From: a virus
Virus record (IMG/VR): IMGVR_UViG_3300009068_000028
Coordinates: 1 to 64,000 of that record
Length of the DNA stretch: 64,000 bases
Reading direction: 5' to 3' (one strand)
Of the stretch, positions 5,769 to 63,054 are shown piece by piece (positions within the stretch are counted from its first letter, which is position 1; the number at the start of each line of letters is the position of its first letter). The notes under the pieces were generated by a model. It had not been told where the DNA came from. It ran no database searches and saw nothing but the letters and a program-made list of their open reading frames with translations. The position numbers were made by a program, and so were the translations under genes.

Positions 5769-6152
5769 ATGGAACAAGAAAAACCAGACCCAATTGAGGA
5801 AGCTCTTAGTAAAGCAAAGTTAACAGTAGTTAAAGAAGAGTACTCTGACTTTGGTACATATATCTGGGTAAAAGCAAATGGCAAGCCATTTACCGACGGA
5901 GACAATAATGTTTTGTCTATTGAGTCAATGAAGAATGATCGTGAGCGTGTAAAGAAACTTATGGATGCCGCCGCATATTATGGAGAAGCAGAAGGTCAGG
6001 CTATCTTCTATCCAAATACACGACAGATTTCTGACGAAACTCACTCAGAGCAAATTGATCGTATGAAGCAAGGATTAATTCCAAACATGAATGACCTTGG
6101 TGCAGTTATTGCTGCAAAACAAACTTTAAAGTTGTATGGAGATGAAGGCTAA
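5769..6152 (+). CDS. Hypothetical protein coupled to the portal gene
   Basis: 127-aa ORF whose TAA overlaps the portal ATG. Extended -10 TGATATACT lies 7 nt upstream. Confidence 0.6.
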   Translation: MEQEKPDPIEEALSKAKLTVVKEEYSDFGTYIWVKANGKPFTDGDNNVLSIESMKNDRERVKKLMDAAAYYGEAEGQAIFYPNTRQISDETHSEQIDRMKQGLIPNMNDLGAVIAAKQTLKLYGDEG

Positions 6153-13438: not shown

Positions 13439-14149
13439 ATGCCCTATTCACGTGGTACAAGTGCTAACATCATCGTTGGTGCAGCAGCACTTTTCGCATA
13501 TCAAGATGGTCCAATCGGTCAAAACACAAGTGGTGGTATTACTAACACTCAAGCTGAAATCGATTTGCCCAACTTCCAAACTAACATTTCGTACAAGGAA
13601 ACTCTTGCAAATGCAACAAATAGCGTTGACTTCCGTAACGTTGGTTACACCATGAACGGTCTTGAAATCGTTTTTCAGCCTGACTTCGGTGAGGTACAGG
13701 TTGACCAGGTTCTTGACGTTGCTAAGCTTTACAAGCAGGGAATGCAGGTTAATCTTAACACAGCATTTGCTGAAGCAACACTAGATAACTTGCTCTTTGC
13801 AATTGCAGGACAGTCAAGCGACCTTTCAGCTACATACACCAGTGTTACATCACAGAGTGCATTCGGAACACCAACTTACGACGGTGACCGAGTTCTAAAT
13901 CTTGGTGCAGGAAACATTGGCGAATGTCCAGTTGAGCGTGGTCTCGTTGCAGTTGGTCCAGGTACAGGAGACTGTGCAGCTGGTTCATCAATTGAGCGAA
14001 TCTACGTTGCATTCCGTGCTCTTTCAATTGAAAGTGTTACAGTATCAGCAAAGCGTGACGAAGCTACAATGTTTGAAGTCTCATTTAGACTTCTTCCTAA
14101 CGACAATGCGTCTTATGGAAAGATTGTAGACCGCACACTCGCATCATAA
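13439..14149 (+). CDS. Major tail (tube) protein
   Basis: NIIVGAA, VGYTMNGLEI, FAEATLDNL and FEVSFRLLP motifs; RBS AGAGGTG; followed by a terminator. Confidence 0.8.
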   Translation: MPYSRGTSANIIVGAAALFAYQDGPIGQNTSGGITNTQAEIDLPNFQTNISYKETLANATNSVDFRNVGYTMNGLEIVFQPDFGEVQVDQVLDVAKLYKQGMQVNLNTAFAEATLDNLLFAIAGQSSDLSATYTSVTSQSAFGTPTYDGDRVLNLGAGNIGECPVERGLVAVGPGTGDCAAGSSIERIYVAFRALSIESVTVSAKRDEATMFEVSFRLLPNDNASYGKIVDRTLAS

Positions 14150-14162
14150 TTTAATATAATCA

Positions 14163-14201
14163 GGACTGCTCAGAGTTTCGGCTCTGGGCAGTTTTGTTTT
14201 T
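14163..14201 (+). terminator. Intrinsic terminator after the tail tube gene
   Basis: GACTGCTCAGAG-TTTCG-GCTCTGGGCAGTT hairpin followed by a T-tract. Confidence 0.75.
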
Positions 14202-14215
14202 GGTACAATAGATGT

Positions 14216-14905
14216 ATGGCAACAGAAATTTATGAAACAGGAACTACTACACTAGTAGACGGAACAGAGATATATTTAACACCGCTAAAGATTAAATACC
14301 TTAGAGAATTTATGAAAGAGTTTGAAAATGTTAAACTTGCAAAAGATGATGCAGAAGCAATCTCAGCATTAGCACAATGTGCGAGGGTATGTATGAAACA
14401 ATTCTATCCATCTATAAAAACAATAGAAGACTTAGAAGACAACCTTAACCTTCCAGCTATCTATAAAGTATTAGACATTGGAGCTGGAATTAAAATTGAC
14501 GGCGACGATGAAGAAGAACCAGTAAAAGATCAGGCAGTAGACAGTGGATCTACCTGGGAGACTCTTGATCTAGCAACACTAGAAGCAGAAGTATTTCTTT
14601 TAGGAATATGGAAAGATTTTGAAGAGCTTGAGTCATCAATATCTATGCCAGAACTAACATCAATACTTAACGTAAAAAGAGATTTAGATTACCAGGAAAA
14701 AAAGTTTATGGCTGGAATCCAGGGGGTAGACCTTGATAAAGAGAGTGGTAGCCAAGATCTATGGGAGCAGAAGAAAGCCAAGTTCTTTAGTGGCGGAGCA
14801 ACCAGTAATTCAAATGACGTAGTAGCCCTACAAGGAGCAAATGCTGCACAAGCTGGATTTGGAATAGGTATGGGATTAGGCTATGAAAAACTAGTCGAAA
14901 ACTAA
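14216..14905 (+). CDS. Tail assembly chaperone, long (GT-like) form
   Basis: Lies between the tube and tape measure genes. The N-terminal ~97 aa are paralogous to 14951..15268, followed by an acidic linker and a C-terminal domain. Confidence 0.7.
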   Translation: MATEIYETGTTTLVDGTEIYLTPLKIKYLREFMKEFENVKLAKDDAEAISALAQCARVCMKQFYPSIKTIEDLEDNLNLPAIYKVLDIGAGIKIDGDDEEEPVKDQAVDSGSTWETLDLATLEAEVFLLGIWKDFEELESSISMPELTSILNVKRDLDYQEKKFMAGIQGVDLDKESGSQDLWEQKKAKFFSGGATSNSNDVVALQGANAAQAGFGIGMGLGYEKLVEN

Positions 14906-14950
14906 ACTTCTTCTGTGATATAATTTAATAAGCCTAACAAGGAGGAAACA

Positions 14951-15268
14951 ATGGCAACAACAATTAATGAAGCTACACAGCTCACACTTATGGACGGAAC
15001 AGTACTTAATGTTCGTCCACTTAAGATCTCACTACTTCGTGACTTTATGAAGGAGTTTGAGGGTATTGCTAAGGTAGCAGATGATAACGCAAAGTCAATG
15101 GATATACTTATGAAGTGTGTTCAAATTGCAATGAAGCAGTATAGTCCAGAACTAGCAGCAGATGTAGCCGCTCTTGAGGACAATATTGATCTACCAACCG
15201 TTTATAAGGTGGTAGAAGCAGCATCTGGAATTAACCTTTCAGATACTGTAGCTGGTCTTATGGGCTAG
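14951..15268 (+). CDS. Tail assembly chaperone, short (G-like) form
   Basis: 105 aa, directly before the tape measure gene; own TGATATAAT promoter and AAGGAGG RBS. Confidence 0.7.
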   Translation: MATTINEATQLTLMDGTVLNVRPLKISLLRDFMKEFEGIAKVADDNAKSMDILMKCVQIAMKQYSPELAADVAALEDNIDLPTVYKVVEAASGINLSDTVAGLMG

Positions 15269-15292: not shown

Positions 15293-18200
15293 ATGGCTGA
15301 AGATGCAAATGCTAATATACGCATAGATATTGACACTACCGCTGCTACTGCAGCACTTAAAGCACTACAAGGTCAAATCGCAAGATTTCACACAGAGATG
15401 GCTCGTGGTGGAGCAGTAGCTGGTCAAAACGCTTCCAAACTACAGCAAGACCTAATAAACTCTATTAATGCTGGTGGTCAGTTCCAAGCTGGAATGACTA
15501 AGGTTCAGTCAACCACCGAAGCATTTACTACTGCCCTTGAGAAAAACAAACTTTCGATGGGGCAGTATTTTAGATACGCTGGGGCATCAACAAAAACATT
15601 CGGACGATTCTTCCGTGGCGAATTTGAAACAATTACAAAGGTAGCTACCGAAAGAGTCAAAGATCTTCAGACTCAATATATCTCAATGGGTCGTGATGCC
15701 AACGGAGCACTACAATCAATCAAGGTTAGACCACTAACTCTTGATATGAATGACCTTGCAACACAAACAATGATTACTGCACAGAAGCAGCAATTATATA
15801 ATCAATTGCTTAAGCAAGGGTCTACTAATCTTCTAAACTTTGGTAAGAATACTCAGTGGGCTGGTCGTCAGCTTATGGTTGGTTTTACCCTTCCCCTCAC
15901 ATTATTTGCTAGTTCAGCTGCCAGATCTTTTATGGAAATTGAAAAGCAGGTAATTAGAATTCGTCGTGTTTATGGAGACTTCTCTACAACAGTTGCAGAA
16001 ACCGACCAGATGATTGATTCAATCAAAACTCTTGCAGGAGAGTATACCAAGTACGGTGTTGCAGTTTCAGACACCCTAGGACTTGCGGCTGAAGCGGCAG
16101 CTGCTGGTAAGTCAGGTCAAGAGCTTTTAGCTCAAATATCTCAAGCTACTCGTCTAGCAGTTCTTGGTAACGTAGAACAAACCCAGGCTCTTGAAACAAC
16201 CATGTCTGTTACTAACGCTTTTGGTGTTGCTACTGAAGATCTTGCCAATAAAATTGACTTCCTTAACGCAGTAGAAAACCAATCTGTTACATCGATTGAA
16301 GACCTTACCATTGCTATTCCCAAGGCTGGACCTGTTGTTCAACAGCTTGGTGGAGACGTAGAGGACTTGGCATTCTTCCTTACAGCAATGAAGGAAGGTG
16401 GAATTAATGCTTCTGAAGGTGCTAACGCACTCAAGTCTGGTCTTGCTGCACTCATTAATCCAACTGGAAAAGCAAAAGAAATGCTTCAAGGATTTGGAAT
16501 TAACATTGAAAAAATTGTTAACTCAAACAAGGGAGACATTAAAGGACTAGTGCTTGATTTTGCTTCCGCACTTGATACACTTAACCCACTAGATCGTGCT
16601 CGTGCAATTGAGCAACTATTTGGTAAGTTCCAATTCTCACGTCTATCTACACTTTTCCAAAACGTCATTGGCGAGGGTACACAAGCAAGCCGTGTTCTTG
16701 AGCTAACAAAAGCAACTACACAAGAACTTGCAATTTTATCCCAACGAGAACTTAAAAAGGTAGAAGAGACAACTACCTATAAATTTGAAAAAGCTTTTGC
16801 AGATTTCCAAGCAGCTTTAGCACCTGTTGGAGAACAGTTCCTAAAAGCCATTACGCCAGTTATTGAATTTGGAACAAAACTTCTTAATCAGTTTAATAGC
16901 ATGGGTGATGGTGCAAAGAGTTTTGCTGTTATTCTGACTACCGTTGTGGCAGGTATTGGTCCTGTCTTGCTTATGACTGTTGGTCTTGTTGCTAACGGTG
17001 TTGCCAACCTTATCAAAATGTTCCAGGCACTTGGAACTATATTTAAGAAATCTGGGGCAGATACAACGACTCTCGGTCTACAAACAGACTATATGACTCA
17101 GCAACAAATTGAAGCAGCAGCAGTAGCAGCATCACTTAATCAGTCACACAGCAAACTTTCACAAACTTTTAGCGTAGAGGCTGCAGCATTAAATAACCTA
17201 ACGCTTGCTTATCAAAAAGCAGTTACTGCACAACGTGGATTTGCAATGCCTGGAGGTAGAGTTGCTGGATCAGCCACAAAGCCAAAAGGTTTTGCTAGTG
17301 GTGTAGTTAGCGTTCCTGGTCCGAAGGGTAAGGGTGATACAGTCCCTGCAATGCTATCACCAGGAGAAGCAGTTATTCCTGCTGACATGGCTAAGAAGTA
17401 TGGCGGTCTTATTCAGGGAATGGTTTTTGACAACATTCCTGGATACTCACAATCTAATATTAAAAAAGATGTTTCTATGTTTGGTGGACCACAAAGACTT
17501 CTTGCTCCATATACTGTTGGTGCTCGTGGAAACACTGCTGGTGGCTTTGGTGTAGATAGAACAGGAATTTCAGCACCAGACTCAATTGCAGAACTTGCAA
17601 TGTCTATGGTTGCAGCAACACTTACTGAGTCTGGTACTAGAATTTCAAACGGCGTAGTCGATTCTGTAGTTGGTCCAATTTCTTCTGCAGCAGAAGAAAT
17701 ATCTATATTACTACAAACTACCGCAGAAGAAATGGGTGACAATGCTACACATATCTCACAAGTAGTAAAAGCAAAACGAGAAGAAATAGATACAATTCTT
17801 AAAAGTAAGTCTGCACTACTTCCTTCAGATCAACAAGGAGCATTTGTTTCTGGATCCCAAAGACTCCTAGATCCAACACTAGAAGATGTTAGAACTGGAG
17901 GATATGCAAGAGTACCTGCAATTAGAGTTAATCCAGATACTGGAGTACCCACTAAAAAGGGTGCTTCTTGGTATACTGCACTAAAGGGTAAGGCACAATC
18001 ATTTAAAGCTAAATTAGCTACACTTAGAAGTAACCCAAATTTTGCAGGTCGTTTAATTGGATCTGCAGGAACACAGGCACACTTAGCACCAGAAAATCTT
18101 TCAATGTTAGGTGGAATGTCTCCAATGGGTGGTGCAGCTATGGGCTTATCGCCAGAATTACAGCAACCAGCTAGACAAAAATTATTAAATACAGTTAGAC

Positions 18201-21200
18201 TATATTTTACAAAATTGGGGCAAGAAGTTCCTAAAGAAATTGAAGCTGCAGTATTGGGTGGTGCTAGAGCGATCACTGCAACAGCATCGCCATCACAAGA
18301 AATGCATAATCTTGGAGTAGATATTGGTCAAGGAGCAATTAATGGGCTTGAGTCTAAAGTAGACGATGCAGCAAGAGCTGGAGAAAGTCTTGGACAAGCT
18401 GCTGCAAGTGGTACACAGGCTGGAGCAAGAGGACAACGAGGAAATAGAAGAGTTCAGACTGGAGTAGTCGGTGCAGGAGGATTCCCTGTAAGAACAACCC
18501 CAGAAGGATCTTCAATTATTATTGGTGATACAGGAAGATTTATACAAGAAGAAGAAAAGCCAGGTAAAAAACCGCTAACCCCATCTCAACAAGCTGCAAG
18601 AGATAAGATGATCCGTCGTCGTGCCATGAATGTAAAGATGCATTCTATGGGTGGACGAATTGCTGCTGGAGTTAAGGGTATGGGCGGTATGGGTGCAGGT
18701 ATGGGGCTTGCTATGGCTGGTGGAGCAGTAGGCATGATACCTGGTCTTCAAGAACTTGGAATGGCTATATCCCTGATTGGTCCACTTTTTATGATGATGA
18801 AGCCAGCAACTGTTGGTGTTATTGCAGCTTTAGGTTTACTAGCTTATGGAATTTATAAAACAATAGAGGCAGGAGAAGAGCAGCGTAAACAAGCATTAGC
18901 CCTTGGAAATTCTTTTGCTATGGGGTCAAAGGCATTACAGTCTATGTCTGAGGATATGGGAACAGTAAGTCTTAGTCAAAAACGTCAGGCAGATACAAAT
19001 GAATTACTTACAAGTACAACAGAAAAACAAATTTCTGCTGGAGAGCAATACTTAACAGAAACAGATAGCGGAAAGGCTCTTGTAGATGAAATAAAAACGT
19101 TACAGTCTAATAATATGTCTACTCAAGAAATTGGAGAACTTCTTGGAAATAAAATTTCTTATGCTGTTTCTCAAAATGTAATTACACAGCAACAAGGTGA
19201 AGGAATAATTGCTGCACTTGGAGTTATTTCTGGAAATCTTGGAGTAAGTACAATAGCTTCCAGCACATTAGAAAATACACAAAACCTTACACCAGGATTG
19301 GCTGCTAGTGGAGCTGCAAAAACAGCTTTTAATGCTGCTAAGAAATCAGACAGTTCTCTAACACAGCTTAGTGGTTCAGTATCTGCACTGTCAGTTGCTA
19401 CTGGTGGAGAAGACATAATTAACTCAAGATATGATTCATTAATTAAAGAATTAAAACTTCAAAAAGAGAAAGCAAAAACAAAAGAAGAAGAGCTTCTTTT
19501 AGAAGGAAAAATTGGAGATTTAGAGTCACAAAGAATAACTGATCTAAAAGATCAAAGAGAACTTCAAAAAGAAATTAAAACTTATATAGAAACAAAAGCA
19601 TTTGCCTTAACGCGAGGCGGAGCTTTTAATGCAGCACCCTATATATCTATGATGAAAGAAATTTTTGGAGAGACTAGCGACGAGTATAAAGCCGCATTGA
19701 GTCTTATGACAGATGAAAATAACAAAGCATTTGGTAGAGAATTTTTAGTTAATATCGGAACAAGTCTTGCAACTAAAGAGCTAAATCCAGGAGCTTTAGA
19801 AACACTACTATCATATGCCAAAGAAAACAAAAATTTTGTTGCAGCATATAACCTATCAGTTACAACTTCTGGCGATATTGAAACACTTGATACTCTTGGA
19901 AAACTTCAAGCATTAGACGCAACATCAGATCAAGTAACAGTTGCCTTAAACTTAATAAATTCTGGAAAATCTGCAGAAGATGTAACTGGAGCTTATCAAG
20001 ATCTTCTTGGTGCTAAGGCTGGAGGTATTGGTGTCGGCGTTGATATTGACGAATCCGCAATTAGAAAATATTTAAATGATCTAAATGCAATAAAAGAAGC
20101 AACACCAAAAGATGGAAAGTTTACAGTTCAATTTCTTGCAGATTACGTCGGAGGAGAAGAGGCTGCAAAAGCAATTTTAGATAGCGAAACTTTTCAGAAA
20201 CTTCCTAAAAAGAAAAAGGCAGAATATATTGCAACCTATAAAGCTTTTCTTACAGGAAGTATTGATAAAGGATCAACTGCATATACTGCCTGGAAAACAT
20301 TAATGAACAAAACTGGTGAAGATACTAGTGATACAGCATTTGTTCGATGGACCCTAAGTAAAATTGAAGGTGCTGGAGAAGGCGGCGGTAGTGGTCCAGG
20401 TCCTACCCCTACTCCCGATCCTCCTGTTGGGGGCGGTGGAAGCCCTGCCGATACTACTACAGAAGATTCAGTAATGGCAAGACTTCAAAAAAGATTAGCT
20501 AAACAAAATGCATTATTAAATGTTATTTCTCTTAAAGAAGCTAAAATTAATAAAAGATTTGATGAACGTAAAAAAGCCCTTGAAGAAATTGCAAAGCTTA
20601 ATGGCAAAATTGCAGAACAACAAAAAGGTCAGCTAGACGTTGCGGATGCGTTAACACGTGGAGACATTGCTTCCGCTGCACGAGCGGTACAAGCAGAAAG
20701 AGTCCGTGCTGCTGCCCTTGCTCAAGAACAACAAATGCTTTCTCTTGAACGACAAAGACAAGCAGAACTTGCAAACGTTATGTTTAAAGGAAAAACAAGA
20801 GAAGAAGTAGAAGCAAAAATTGCTAGATTAAATATGAAAATTGCAAAACGTGAATACAGAACTGCTGCTAGTGGAGGTATGATAAGAGGATACGCTAGTG
20901 GAGGTATGATGAATGGATACTCTGGTGGAGGAATGATGAAAAGATATTCTGTTGGTGGTAAAGTTGTTTCATATTTTGCCGATGGTGGAAGTCCTTTAGG
21001 TTCAGATACCGTTCCTGCCATGCTTACTCCTGGAGAGTTTGTTATTAAACGACCTGCCGTTCAAGATTTCGGGGTAAAGAATCTACAAGCAATCAATAGT
21101 GGCAGTAATCCATCTTCAGGCGTGTATAATTATAGTATCAGCGTAAACGTTAGCACAGAGGCAAACCCAGATCAGATTGCACGAGCAGTAGCACAAAACG

Positions 21201-21244
21201 TAAAGCGTACAGAATCTTACAGAATAAGGGGTAACAGGCTATAA
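15293..21244 (+). CDS. Tape measure protein (TP901 family-like)
   Basis: 1983 aa, A/G/L-rich and helical; GINASEGANALKS core, internal hydrophobic segments; canonical position. Confidence 0.9.
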   Translation: MAEDANANIRIDIDTTAATAALKALQGQIARFHTEMARGGAVAGQNASKLQQDLINSINAGGQFQAGMTKVQSTTEAFTTALEKNKLSMGQYFRYAGASTKTFGRFFRGEFETITKVATERVKDLQTQYISMGRDANGALQSIKVRPLTLDMNDLATQTMITAQKQQLYNQLLKQGSTNLLNFGKNTQWAGRQLMVGFTLPLTLFASSAARSFMEIEKQVIRIRRVYGDFSTTVAETDQMIDSIKTLAGEYTKYGVAVSDTLGLAAEAAAAGKSGQELLAQISQATRLAVLGNVEQTQALETTMSVTNAFGVATEDLANKIDFLNAVENQSVTSIEDLTIAIPKAGPVVQQLGGDVEDLAFFLTAMKEGGINASEGANALKSGLAALINPTGKAKEMLQGFGINIEKIVNSNKGDIKGLVLDFASALDTLNPLDRARAIEQLFGKFQFSRLSTLFQNVIGEGTQASRVLELTKATTQELAILSQRELKKVEETTTYKFEKAFADFQAALAPVGEQFLKAITPVIEFGTKLLNQFNSMGDGAKSFAVILTTVVAGIGPVLLMTVGLVANGVANLIKMFQALGTIFKKSGADTTTLGLQTDYMTQQQIEAAAVAASLNQSHSKLSQTFSVEAAALNNLTLAYQKAVTAQRGFAMPGGRVAGSATKPKGFASGVVSVPGPKGKGDTVPAMLSPGEAVIPADMAKKYGGLIQGMVFDNIPGYSQSNIKKDVSMFGGPQRLLAPYTVGARGNTAGGFGVDRTGISAPDSIAELAMSMVAATLTESGTRISNGVVDSVVGPISSAAEEISILLQTTAEEMGDNATHISQVVKAKREEIDTILKSKSALLPSDQQGAFVSGSQRLLDPTLEDVRTGGYARVPAIRVNPDTGVPTKKGASWYTALKGKAQSFKAKLATLRSNPNFAGRLIGSAGTQAHLAPENLSMLGGMSPMGGAAMGLSPELQQPARQKLLNTVRLYFTKLGQEVPKEIEAAVLGGARAITATASPSQEMHNLGVDIGQGAINGLESKVDDAARAGESLGQAAASGTQAGARGQRGNRRVQTGVVGAGGFPVRTTPEGSSIIIGDTGRFIQEEEKPGKKPLTPSQQAARDKMIRRRAMNVKMHSMGGRIAAGVKGMGGMGAGMGLAMAGGAVGMIPGLQELGMAISLIGPLFMMMKPATVGVIAALGLLAYGIYKTIEAGEEQRKQALALGNSFAMGSKALQSMSEDMGTVSLSQKRQADTNELLTSTTEKQISAGEQYLTETDSGKALVDEIKTLQSNNMSTQEIGELLGNKISYAVSQNVITQQQGEGIIAALGVISGNLGVSTIASSTLENTQNLTPGLAASGAAKTAFNAAKKSDSSLTQLSGSVSALSVATGGEDIINSRYDSLIKELKLQKEKAKTKEEELLLEGKIGDLESQRITDLKDQRELQKEIKTYIETKAFALTRGGAFNAAPYISMMKEIFGETSDEYKAALSLMTDENNKAFGREFLVNIGTSLATKELNPGALETLLSYAKENKNFVAAYNLSVTTSGDIETLDTLGKLQALDATSDQVTVALNLINSGKSAEDVTGAYQDLLGAKAGGIGVGVDIDESAIRKYLNDLNAIKEATPKDGKFTVQFLADYVGGEEAAKAILDSETFQKLPKKKKAEYIATYKAFLTGSIDKGSTAYTAWKTLMNKTGEDTSDTAFVRWTLSKIEGAGEGGGSGPGPTPTPDPPVGGGGSPADTTTEDSVMARLQKRLAKQNALLNVISLKEAKINKRFDERKKALEEIAKLNGKIAEQQKGQLDVADALTRGDIASAARAVQAERVRAAALAQEQQMLSLERQRQAELANVMFKGKTREEVEAKIARLNMKIAKREYRTAASGGMIRGYASGGMMNGYSGGGMMKRYSVGGKVVSYFADGGSPLGSDTVPAMLTPGEFVIKRPAVQDFGVKNLQAINSGSNPSSGVYNYSISVNVSTEANPDQIARAVAQNVKRTESYRIRGNRL
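20866..20990 (+). repeat. 27-nt (9-aa) degenerate tandem repeat near the tape measure C-terminus
   Basis: ASGGMIRGY/ASGGMMNGY/SGGGMMKRY/SVGGKVVSY; GCTAGTGGAGGTATGAT occurs twice. Confidence 0.7.
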
Positions 21245-50213: not shown

Positions 50214-50285
50214 TCCTCCTTAGCTCAACGGCAGAGCGTTTCACTGTTAATGAATTGGTTCGTGGTTCGAATCCACGAGGGGGAG
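50214..50285 (+). tRNA. tRNA-Asn(GTT)
   Basis: Cloverleaf with TCCTCCT/AGGGGGA acceptor, CTGTTAA loop and GTTCGAATC; CCA not encoded. Confidence 0.92.
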
Positions 50286-50302
50286 CAATGCTATAATTAA
50301 TC

Positions 50303-52154: not shown

Positions 52155-52227
52155 GCCGCCTTAGCTCATTTGGTAGAGCAGGTCCTTTGTAACGATCAGG
52201 TGCTCGGTTCGATTCCGAGAGGTGGCT
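52155..52227 (+). tRNA. tRNA-Thr(TGT)
   Basis: GCCGCCT/AGGTGGC acceptor, TTTGTAA loop, GTTCGATTC; C-C mismatch at the base of the anticodon stem. Confidence 0.88.
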
Positions 52228-52270
52228 CAAAGAATCCTGATATACTTGTATAGAAGGAGGTCATAAAACT

Positions 52271-54782: not shown

Positions 54783-54993
54783 CTCTCTAGAACAAATGGA
54801 GACCATTGTAGAAAACAATAAGTCTCTTCTCTGGGATGGTTGGAATGTAAAAGAAATTACGCCATCACCAACTGGATGGACAAAGCCAAGCGGCATGTTC
54901 CGTAATAACGAGTGGTTCATTCAGAAACACTACAATCTTAGATATGATGGTTGGGATATCCCCAATAAGTTTGTGGGGAATGATGCAAAGTGA
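54772..54993 (+). CDS. Hypothetical Trp-rich protein
   Basis: AGGAG RBS; LLWDGWNV motif. Confidence 0.55.
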   Translation: MKINSLEQMETIVENNKSLLWDGWNVKEITPSPTGWTKPSGMFRNNEWFIQKHYNLRYDGWDIPNKFVGNDAK

Positions 54994-55267
54994 AGAATGG
55001 AAAAAACAAGCACGATGCGAAGGTTACGACACAAACCTATTCTTCGACAAATATGAAGAAGATCTTGACCTCAGAGTGGGGATAGACAATCTTTGTGCAG
55101 GGTGTCCTGTTGCAAGACTATGTTTTGCTACTGGAGTTTCTCAAAAAGCTTGGGGAGTCTGGGGTGGGGTATATCTTGAAAACGGAAAGATCTCACGAGA
55201 ATTCAATAAACACAGGTCAAAGGCTGATTGGGCTGAGACCTGGCAATCTTTAGTAACGGATAGATAA
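54980..55267 (+). CDS. whiB: WhiB-family Fe-S transcription factor
   Basis: W...ARC...LFF...C-x2-C-x5-C...GVWGG. Confidence 0.9.
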   Translation: MMQSEEWKKQARCEGYDTNLFFDKYEEDLDLRVGIDNLCAGCPVARLCFATGVSQKAWGVWGGVYLENGKISREFNKHRSKADWAETWQSLVTDR

Positions 55268-62223: not shown

Positions 62224-62297
62224 GGGGCAGTAGCATAACAGGTAAATGCAATACTCTTATAAGGTATCGATAATGGGTTCAAGCCCCATCTGCCCTA
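62224..62297 (+). tRNA. tRNA-Ile(TAT)
   Basis: GGGGCAG/CTGCCCT acceptor, ATACT-CTTATAA-GGTAT arm, GTTCAAGC, discriminator A. Confidence 0.85.
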
Positions 62298-62298
62298 C

Positions 62299-62370
62299 GC
62301 CCTTGTAGCTCAGAGGAAGAGCAGCAGGTTTCTACCCTGCGTGTCGCTGGTTCGATTCCAGTCAGGGGTT
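62299..62370 (+). tRNA. tRNA-Arg(TCT)
   Basis: GCCCTTG/CAGGGGT acceptor, GCAGG-TTTCTAC-CCTGC arm, GTTCGATTC. Confidence 0.88.
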
Positions 62371-63054
62371 CTCGTATTGCGAAGGATCTGGAAACATATC
62401 CTTTAAGATAAAATCAAGTATAAAGTCAAAGTTTGAGTCGTGACTAGATATGTAGTTTAGGTCTTCTTTAATGAGGTCGTGGAACTTACCCTTTAATTCT
62501 GTATTACTATATACTTTCACATCGTAAGTCTTTGTGCCACCTACATTATAAACATTTCCATATGTTGATCTATGCAGTGTTTTATGATTTAATACTTCAA
62601 GAAGCTTTGCCTTGTTCATAGGCATAGGAACATGTAGTTCGTAATCTAAAGTATTTGCAATACCCATTCTATTTAAATAGTTTTGTGTCTTGCTAAACAG
62701 TCTTTGATATCCATAATTGGTTTGTCCTGTGTCTGAATAAGATGCAAGAACTTCTTGGATTGTTCCAGAATAAAAGTATTCAACCTTATCTAATTTTTTT
62801 ACAGTAAAAAAGTCATCATTCATTAAAACAAAATCATCACTTATATCCTCTGTTGCACAGATAACATCTAATTGTTTCCAGACGTTAGGATGTCCTATAC
62901 CAGTTTGTTGTACATAAATATAATCTCCTGTATACCAGTCTGGCTTGCCACCGACTACCCAGATACGACCTTCTGGTAAATTTTTCACGGTAGATCTAAT
63001 TGAGTATCTTAACTCTTCATTGTCTCCAGGACGGCAAACATAAACGTAATCCAT
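62362..63054 (-). CDS. Stealth-like (hexose-1-phosphate transferase) protein
   Basis: MDYVY, EELRYSIRS, FVLMNDDFF and HVPMP match Stealth CR1-CR3-type motifs. Confidence 0.6.
   Translation of the reverse strand: MDYVYVCRPGDNEELRYSIRSTVKNLPEGRIWVVGGKPDWYTGDYIYVQQTGIGHPNVWKQLDVICATEDISDDFVLMNDDFFTVKKLDKVEYFYSGTIQEVLASYSDTGQTNYGYQRLFSKTQNYLNRMGIANTLDYELHVPMPMNKAKLLEVLNHKTLHRSTYGNVYNVGGTKTYDVKVYSNTELKGKFHDLIKEDLNYISSHDSNFDFILDFILKDMFPDPSQYENP

Follow-up and report, generated by a model that had tools for sequence, protein, structure and literature searches.

Paired short and fused long tail chaperone genes as a likely replacement for the G/GT frameshift in uncultured, probably actinobacterial phages

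The G/GT frameshift is among the most conserved recoding events of phages, and it is usually explained as a means to fix the ratio between two proteins with a common domain. In phage lambda, gpG and gpGT are made by a -1 programmed frameshift (Levin 1993; Xu, Hendrix, Duda 2004, 2013, 2014; PMC5009743), and the G:GT ratio is about 30:1 (PMC5009743). We analyzed a window of 64 kb at the start of an IMG/VR viral contig of 91.7 kb that is estimated to be 85% complete, and in this window the slot between the tube and tape measure genes is occupied by two complete open reading frames (ORFs). The locus raises the question of how such a phage would make a short and a long chaperone, and of what would set their ratio. 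An initial annotation of this DNA had proposed that the long ORF encodes a pre-fused GT and the short ORF a separate G, with promoter and ribosome binding site strength taking the place of recoding. Our analysis makes it quite likely that the short gene provides free G and the long gene a pre-fused GT, and that the duplicated pair replaces the frameshift, with a ratio that would be set at initiation.

The two ORFs lie in a structural module that runs from the portal, protease, and capsid genes to the tube gene, the putative chaperone pair, and the tape measure gene. The genes and protein domains used below are as follows.

From 6152: portal gene
From 7821: protease gene
From 9032: capsid gene
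13439..14149, + strand: major tail (tube) protein gene, 236 aa (homology to Targaryen; phrog_2175)
14216..14905, + strand: predicted long chaperone gene, 229 aa, an apparent in-frame G1-linker-T fusion (alignments, phrogs, relatives' -1 products)
14216-14497, + strand: predicted G1 domain, aa 1-94 of the long protein (alignment to the short protein)
Long protein aa 95-112: acidic linker
14552-14902, + strand: predicted T domain, aa 113-229 of the long protein
14951..15268, + strand: predicted short chaperone gene G2, 105 aa, apparently an ancestral-type G (phrogs, relatives' single G, tree)
15293..21244, + strand: tape measure protein gene, 1983 aa (megablast, position, size)

The tube protein shares 41% identity (E 2e-48) with the protein annotated as the major tail protein in Streptomyces phage Targaryen and matches phrog_2175 (E 3e-31). 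By megablast, the tape measure gene matches annotated tape measure genes of Streptomyces phages. A WhiB-like ORF is present at 54944-55267 on the + strand (PF02467; 42.7 bits versus a cut-off of 23.6), and every cultured relative that we found by tblastn among 50,697 phage records infects Actinomycetota. The WhiB gene and the relatedness to Streptomyces and Rhodococcus phages point to an actinobacterium as the probable host, despite a G+C content of ~39%. The window also carries four tRNA genes, Asn-GTT, Thr-TGT, Ile-TAT, and Arg-TCT, at 50214-50286, 52155-52228, and 62224-62371.

Pairwise alignment bore out the proposal that the two ORFs are paralogous. The identity had been put at roughly 40% by eye, and BLASTP gave a slightly higher value, with 43 of 96 residues identical (45%; E 6e-28) between residues 1-94 of the long protein and residues 1-96 of the short protein. 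This shared N-terminal part is thus paralogous rather than identical between the two proteins. The long protein has 135 extra residues beyond it, and these form the acidic linker (DGDDEEEP...) and then the additional domain that the initial annotation had described, which we place at ~117 residues. Both proteins matched phrog_10504, residues 131-177 of the long protein matched a second family, phrog_10474, and the short protein showed a weak match to phrog_1932, a tail assembly chaperone family (E 0.009). The short protein is also 56 to 58% identical to the single G protein of two metagenomic IMG/VR loci with a frameshift-type layout, L080 and L081.

We searched the 50,697 phage records with the long protein and obtained matches in 130 of them, 127 from Streptomyces phages and 3 from Rhodococcus phages. 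These 130 cultured actinophages belong mostly to the Stanwilliamsviridae, the family of the Streptomyces phages that we examined, which have genomes of about 130 kb. Among the matches listed, residues 1-181 of the long protein matched as two pieces wherever the N-terminal part was matched. The two pieces lie in neighboring ORFs, flanked by the major tail gene and the tape measure gene, and most of the listed Streptomyces and Rhodococcus phage records annotate both as tail assembly chaperones. The fused form was absent from all cultured phages in the collection searched. The Stanwilliamsviridae proteins (clusters BE and BK; Targaryen gp58/59 and Karp gp36/37) are 42 to 45% identical to the long protein over residues 1-181, and the synteny is shared, down to the terminator and the extended -10 promoter that follow the major tail gene. 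The layout differs in that theirs is a single G gene with T in the -1 frame and an overlap of 46 to 58 nt, their G is leadered, with a clear Shine-Dalgarno sequence in Targaryen, and their T part is shorter, without the region of the C-terminal GFGIGMG motif.

We examined four frameshift-type loci, those of Targaryen (L001) and Karp (L002) and the metagenomic L080 and L081. In all four, the T frame is -1 relative to G and overlaps the end of G by 40 to 58 nt. The -1 frame of Targaryen and Karp is open 46 to 58 nt upstream of the first ORF's stop, and homology to the long protein (the ...SWEELNLAQLEAEVFLLG... region) reaches upstream of any ATG. Slippery heptamers are present in the G frame of L080 (G_GGA_AAC) and of L081 and Karp (C_CCA_AAT); a canonical heptamer was not seen in the overlap of Targaryen, one of the four loci. 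The conceptual -1 products of L080 (233 aa), L081 (236 aa), and Karp (215 aa) match the 229-aa protein from end to end, at 49% (E 8e-76), 47% (E 6e-75), and 42% (E 2e-45) identity, respectively, and the acidic linker of the 229-aa protein falls where the relatives change frame. From this colinearity with the -1 products of its relatives we conclude that the long ORF is, as judged by the alignments, an in-frame fusion of G and T.

Two of these loci have annotations that deserve comment. In Targaryen (L001 3288-3345) and Karp (L002 3306-3351) the two chaperone ORFs are annotated as separate genes. Yet the -1 frame runs open through the junction, and conserved peptide is encoded ahead of the start annotated for the second ORF; in Karp, C_CCA_AAT stands at the start of the overlap. 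The comparison supports annotating a -1 frameshift in both phages, where the ORFs are now listed separately.

In a metagenome protein collection we found 5383 homologues of the long protein with lengths of 125 to 401 aa. Using the fused form as the query, we retrieved 78 IMG/VR loci, and we examined the pair, together with its signals, across about 75 related contigs. The long-then-short order that the initial annotation had suggested looking for in related phages was found in every untruncated locus of about 75, with a long gene of 225 to 244 aa followed by a short gene of 101 to 111 aa, and this order was kept down to 33% identity in the G1 domain. The sole exceptions among the 78 loci were the frameshift-type L080 and L081. 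Since both the pair and the signals are found again in about 75 related contigs, the pairing is not a chance arrangement in one genome.

A quick maximum-likelihood tree of G domains placed the G1 copies in one clan (SH-aLRT 92) and grouped the G2 copies with the single G of the frameshift-type phages. The mean identity between genomes was 52% for G1, 66% for G2, and 64.5% for T, and G1 was more diverged than G2 in 92% of 2432 genome pairs; by this measure G1 evolves faster than G2. Within one genome, G1 and G2 are 27 to 47% identical. The single G of the canonical relatives is preceded by an extended -10 and then a leader of 27 to 35 nt in 4 of 4 loci, with a clear Shine-Dalgarno sequence in 2 of the 4 (Targaryen and L081). 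The canonical single G thus shares the expression layout of G2, and on these grounds we regard G2 as the conservative copy and G1-T as the derived one.

The origin of the pair is less sharply drawn. In a tube-protein tree rooted with the Streptomyces phages, L080 and L081 were nested among the pair-bearing phages (SH-aLRT 86), but an approximately unbiased (AU) test did not reject monophyly of the pair-bearing phages (p 0.508), and we drew no conclusion of a second origin or a reversal from this tree. A single origin of the pair is compatible with the trees, though not proven by them, and module exchange or a second switch between the layouts may have contributed. Directly after the T stop and ahead of the tape measure gene, L080 (3699-3730) and L081 (3708-3740) carry a promoter-like TGATATAAT or TGTATAAT, in the same place as the short gene's promoter in the pair-bearing phages. 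This element suggests that a promoter already existed there when the additional copy of G was inserted behind it.

The proposal that initiation sets the ratio depends on the signals in front of the two genes, which are the following.

14161..14201, + strand: predicted intrinsic terminator, a 16-pair hairpin (14161-14196) and a T run (terminator scan)
14201..14209, + strand: predicted extended -10, TGGTACAAT, 6 nt upstream of the long gene's ATG (motif, relatives)
14916..14924, + strand: predicted extended -10, TGATATAAT, within the 45-nt gap that separates the two genes (motif, relatives)
14939..14945, + strand: Shine-Dalgarno sequence AAGGAGG, 5 nt before the short gene's ATG (14951)

The initial annotation had read both sets of signals in this way, and each was located where it had been described. 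The terminator follows directly after the tube gene. Its stem sequence differs from locus to locus, and in 52 distinct relatives the hairpin, which is accompanied by a T run there too, had a mean minimum free energy of -23.5 kcal/mol versus -8.0 kcal/mol for shuffled sequence. Over 52 distinct sequences upstream of the long gene, TGnTAnnnT was present in all 52, with a perfect TATAAT in 16, and the start codon came 5 to 9 nt after the -10 in 50 and exactly 6 nt after it in 32. No Shine-Dalgarno sequence precedes the long gene (median duplex energy, -2.4 kcal/mol; strong in 0 of 52). Because an ATG 6 to 7 nt after the -10 coincides with the usual transcription start, we predict that the long-gene transcript is leaderless. 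The short gene was examined over 56 distinct upstream sequences, and all 56 carried TGnTATAAT with a perfect TATAAT 24 to 38 nt before the start codon. Its Shine-Dalgarno duplex energy was -10.9 kcal/mol here, with a median of -10.8 kcal/mol in the 56 relatives. The difference in expression signals between the two genes thus holds across the relatives, and we infer from the sequence that these signals would keep the long form rare.

The alternative that fares best against this reading accepts the short protein as G and the long one as a fused GT but holds that the contrast between leaderless and Shine-Dalgarno-led initiation does not make GT rare. Leaderless initiation would then be an ordinary and efficient mode, and the ratio would be set elsewhere, by mRNA or protein stability or by promoter timing, or a low ratio would be unneeded if the diverged G1 had a binding specificity of its own. 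In actinobacteria, translation of leaderless mRNAs can be efficient. The window contains more TGNTAYAAT sites than expected (18 observed versus 8.35), and an ATG 5 to 9 nt after an extended -10 (TGATATACT, TGATATAAT, or TGCTATAAT) with no Shine-Dalgarno sequence is found at four other + strand genes, at 5769, 29924, 50303, and 51329. This phage seems to use leaderless expression regularly, and because the same layout serves other genes, a leaderless transcript need not mean weak translation. The perfect TATAAT in some of the long-gene promoters agrees with this alternative, and the low identity of G1 to G2 and its faster evolution are compatible with a specialized role for G1. Against it, the asymmetry is nearly invariant, with no strong Shine-Dalgarno sequence before any long gene and both TATAAT and a Shine-Dalgarno sequence before every short gene; the upstream terminator would insulate the long gene from transcription of the tube gene in all relatives; and the short gene would additionally be covered by transcripts from the long gene's promoter. 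We consider this alternative improbable.

A second alternative concerns the identity of the long protein: only the short protein would be a chaperone, and the 229-aa protein would be, for example, a minor tail or initiator component that reuses a G-like domain, with no GT at all. The Pfam searches and the modeling of the long protein's C terminus leave some room for this idea. Neither the long nor the short protein had a Pfam match at E <= 0.1, and neither the T nor the G families were matched; none of 47 homologues of the short protein matched any chaperone family of Pfam. Searching the PDB sequences with profiles returned chance matches only, and language-model leads were limited to PF23857, PF06894, PF17388, and PF06223. 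In AlphaFold2 models built from 47-sequence alignments, the G domain is a beta hairpin followed by four helices, with a pLDDT of about 84 in the long protein and 61 in the short protein alone; the C-terminal 50 residues of the long protein were modeled with low confidence.

We compared the modeled G domain with 48,161 PDB representatives using VIA-align. The first-ranked match was Bacillus subtilis YqbN (3klu; Z 5.3, 84 residues aligned, rmsd 4.1), which we take to be an XkdN-like prophage chaperone, and the third was the HK97 tail assembly chaperone (2ob9; Z 4.1, 84 residues aligned, rmsd 4.1); Z scores of about 4 to 5 are weak by VIA-align's own guidance. A Foldseek search of the PDB gave no significant match. 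Foldseek against BFVD did return tail assembly chaperones and GT proteins, among them N15 GT and a protein of Enterococcus phage EfaCPT1, at E values of 3e-3 to 0.06. The ESM Atlas led from the short protein to tail assembly chaperone clusters and from the T part to a cluster that partly carries Phage_tail_T.

The fold evidence for a chaperone identity is consistent but weak, and the probable identity of the two proteins as chaperones comes mainly from synteny, from the annotated actinophage homologues, and from the frameshift architecture of the relatives. These same lines speak against a long protein that is something other than GT. It is colinear over its full length with the -1 products of the relatives, its junction falls at their frameshift site, its T part matches the ORFs that Streptomyces phage records list as the second tail assembly chaperone gene, and the Atlas lead for that part is Phage_tail_T. 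We regard a non-chaperone role for the long protein as very improbable.

In the pair studied here, the long form is one continuous ORF, and the layout of a programmed frameshift is found in the relatives and not here. The short gene has no canonical slippery heptamer, and both of its shifted frames (-1 and +1) are full of stops, in agreement with the expectation that no frameshift product joins the ORFs. An A_AAA_AAG does occur in frame at 14698-14704, inside the T domain (EKKF). Its nine-base context recurs exactly in 16 of 71 relatives, and most encode the site differently; we rejected it as a functional slip site on this lack of conservation, and it is probably a by-product of Lys-Lys coding. 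One reading frame is common to the long, short, and tape measure ORFs, and we also rejected read-through joining them, since each spacer contains two in-frame stops and spacer lengths differ among relatives without regard to frame. That recoding still operates here, by a -1 slip at 14698 or by in-frame read-through, to yield extra products is hardly credible: the heptamer is a strong one and in frame and the three ORFs are in register, but the context is poorly conserved, a slip would terminate after about 12 codons, and the paired stops and variable spacers oppose read-through.

The reading that we prefer, a free G and a pre-fused GT from separate genes in place of the frameshift, is thus supported by the colinearity of the long protein with the relatives' -1 products and by a short gene without a frameshift option. 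In this scheme the ancestor would have had a single G gene with a T extension in the -1 frame. G would have been duplicated, one copy being fused in frame to T and the other staying a free G. The 105-aa G2 would be the short form, equivalent to lambda gpG, and the 229-aa protein would be the gpGT equivalent, composed of a diverged G1, an acidic linker at the relatives' shift site, and a T domain. By analogy with lambda, G2 and the G1 domain would coat the tape measure protein, the T domain would recruit the tube protein, and both chaperones would presumably be absent from virions.

Each gene would have its own extended -10 promoter. The long gene, placed behind a strong terminator, would be expressed from a leaderless mRNA that starts at or next to the AUG and has no Shine-Dalgarno sequence, so that its translation would depend entirely on transcripts initiated at its own promoter, which is often sub-consensus. 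In read-through transcripts of the tube gene, the long gene's AUG would lie internally and lack a Shine-Dalgarno sequence. The short gene would have a consensus TGnTATAAT promoter, a leader of 24 to 38 nt, and a strong Shine-Dalgarno sequence, and it would also be carried on transcripts from the long gene's promoter. Because the long gene's AUG would be internal and lack a Shine-Dalgarno sequence on read-through transcripts, and because the short gene would be present on the transcripts from both promoters, we predict more G than GT, with the ratio set at transcription and translation initiation and not by recoding.

As in lambda, the pair sits after the tube gene and before the tape measure gene, and its short and long forms likewise share an N-terminal domain, with a C-terminal T extension in the long form. 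It differs in that the long form has its own in-frame gene, which precedes the short one, and the G domain of the long form is a diverged paralogue, about 45% identical to the short form, whereas in lambda the two sequences are identical. At the short gene there is no overlap, slippery site, or open shifted frame, and the Pfam families for lambda G and T are not matched by either protein. The direct relatives (Stanwilliamsviridae, L080, and L081) keep the -1 layout, with slippery heptamers in 3 of the 4 loci examined.

The concept of a two-gene solution is not new. T4-like phages have been reported to have a short gene and a fused long gene (PMC10274946, citing Vladimirov, Gautam and Davidson 2022), and as described there, the arrangement of a separate short gene and a fused long gene is the same as here. 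The lineage is different: the T4-like phages are myoviruses, whereas the phages studied here are relatives of long-tailed Streptomyces phages and probably actinobacterial. The likeness to the T4-like case is drawn from the description in PMC10274946, and the cultured sequence homologues that we found are actinophages only. The two-gene solution in these phages probably arose independently of the T4-like case. New here are the different and very large lineage, the sister lineages that retain the frameshift, the conserved architecture of terminator, leaderless start, and Shine-Dalgarno-led start, and a long form whose G domain has diverged markedly.

Taken more broadly, we lean toward the view that a large and abundant clade of uncultured actinobacterial phages, independently of the T4-like phages, replaced the otherwise nearly universal -1 frameshift with a pair of genes whose ratio is set at initiation, and that the G domain of the long form has since become specialized. 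For annotation, thousands of metagenomic "hypothetical proteins" of ~230 aa and ~105 aa could be named as long and short tail chaperones, and predictors of frameshifts should expect no slippery site in this clade. The pair shows how a frameshift can be replaced, and the close relatives that keep the frameshift form a natural before-and-after pair with it. With closely related lineages using either solution, the purpose of the frameshift can be tested directly: it may serve the ratio alone or also the identity of the shared domain. If our reading is true, the N terminus shared by G and GT need not be identical in the two proteins for tail assembly.
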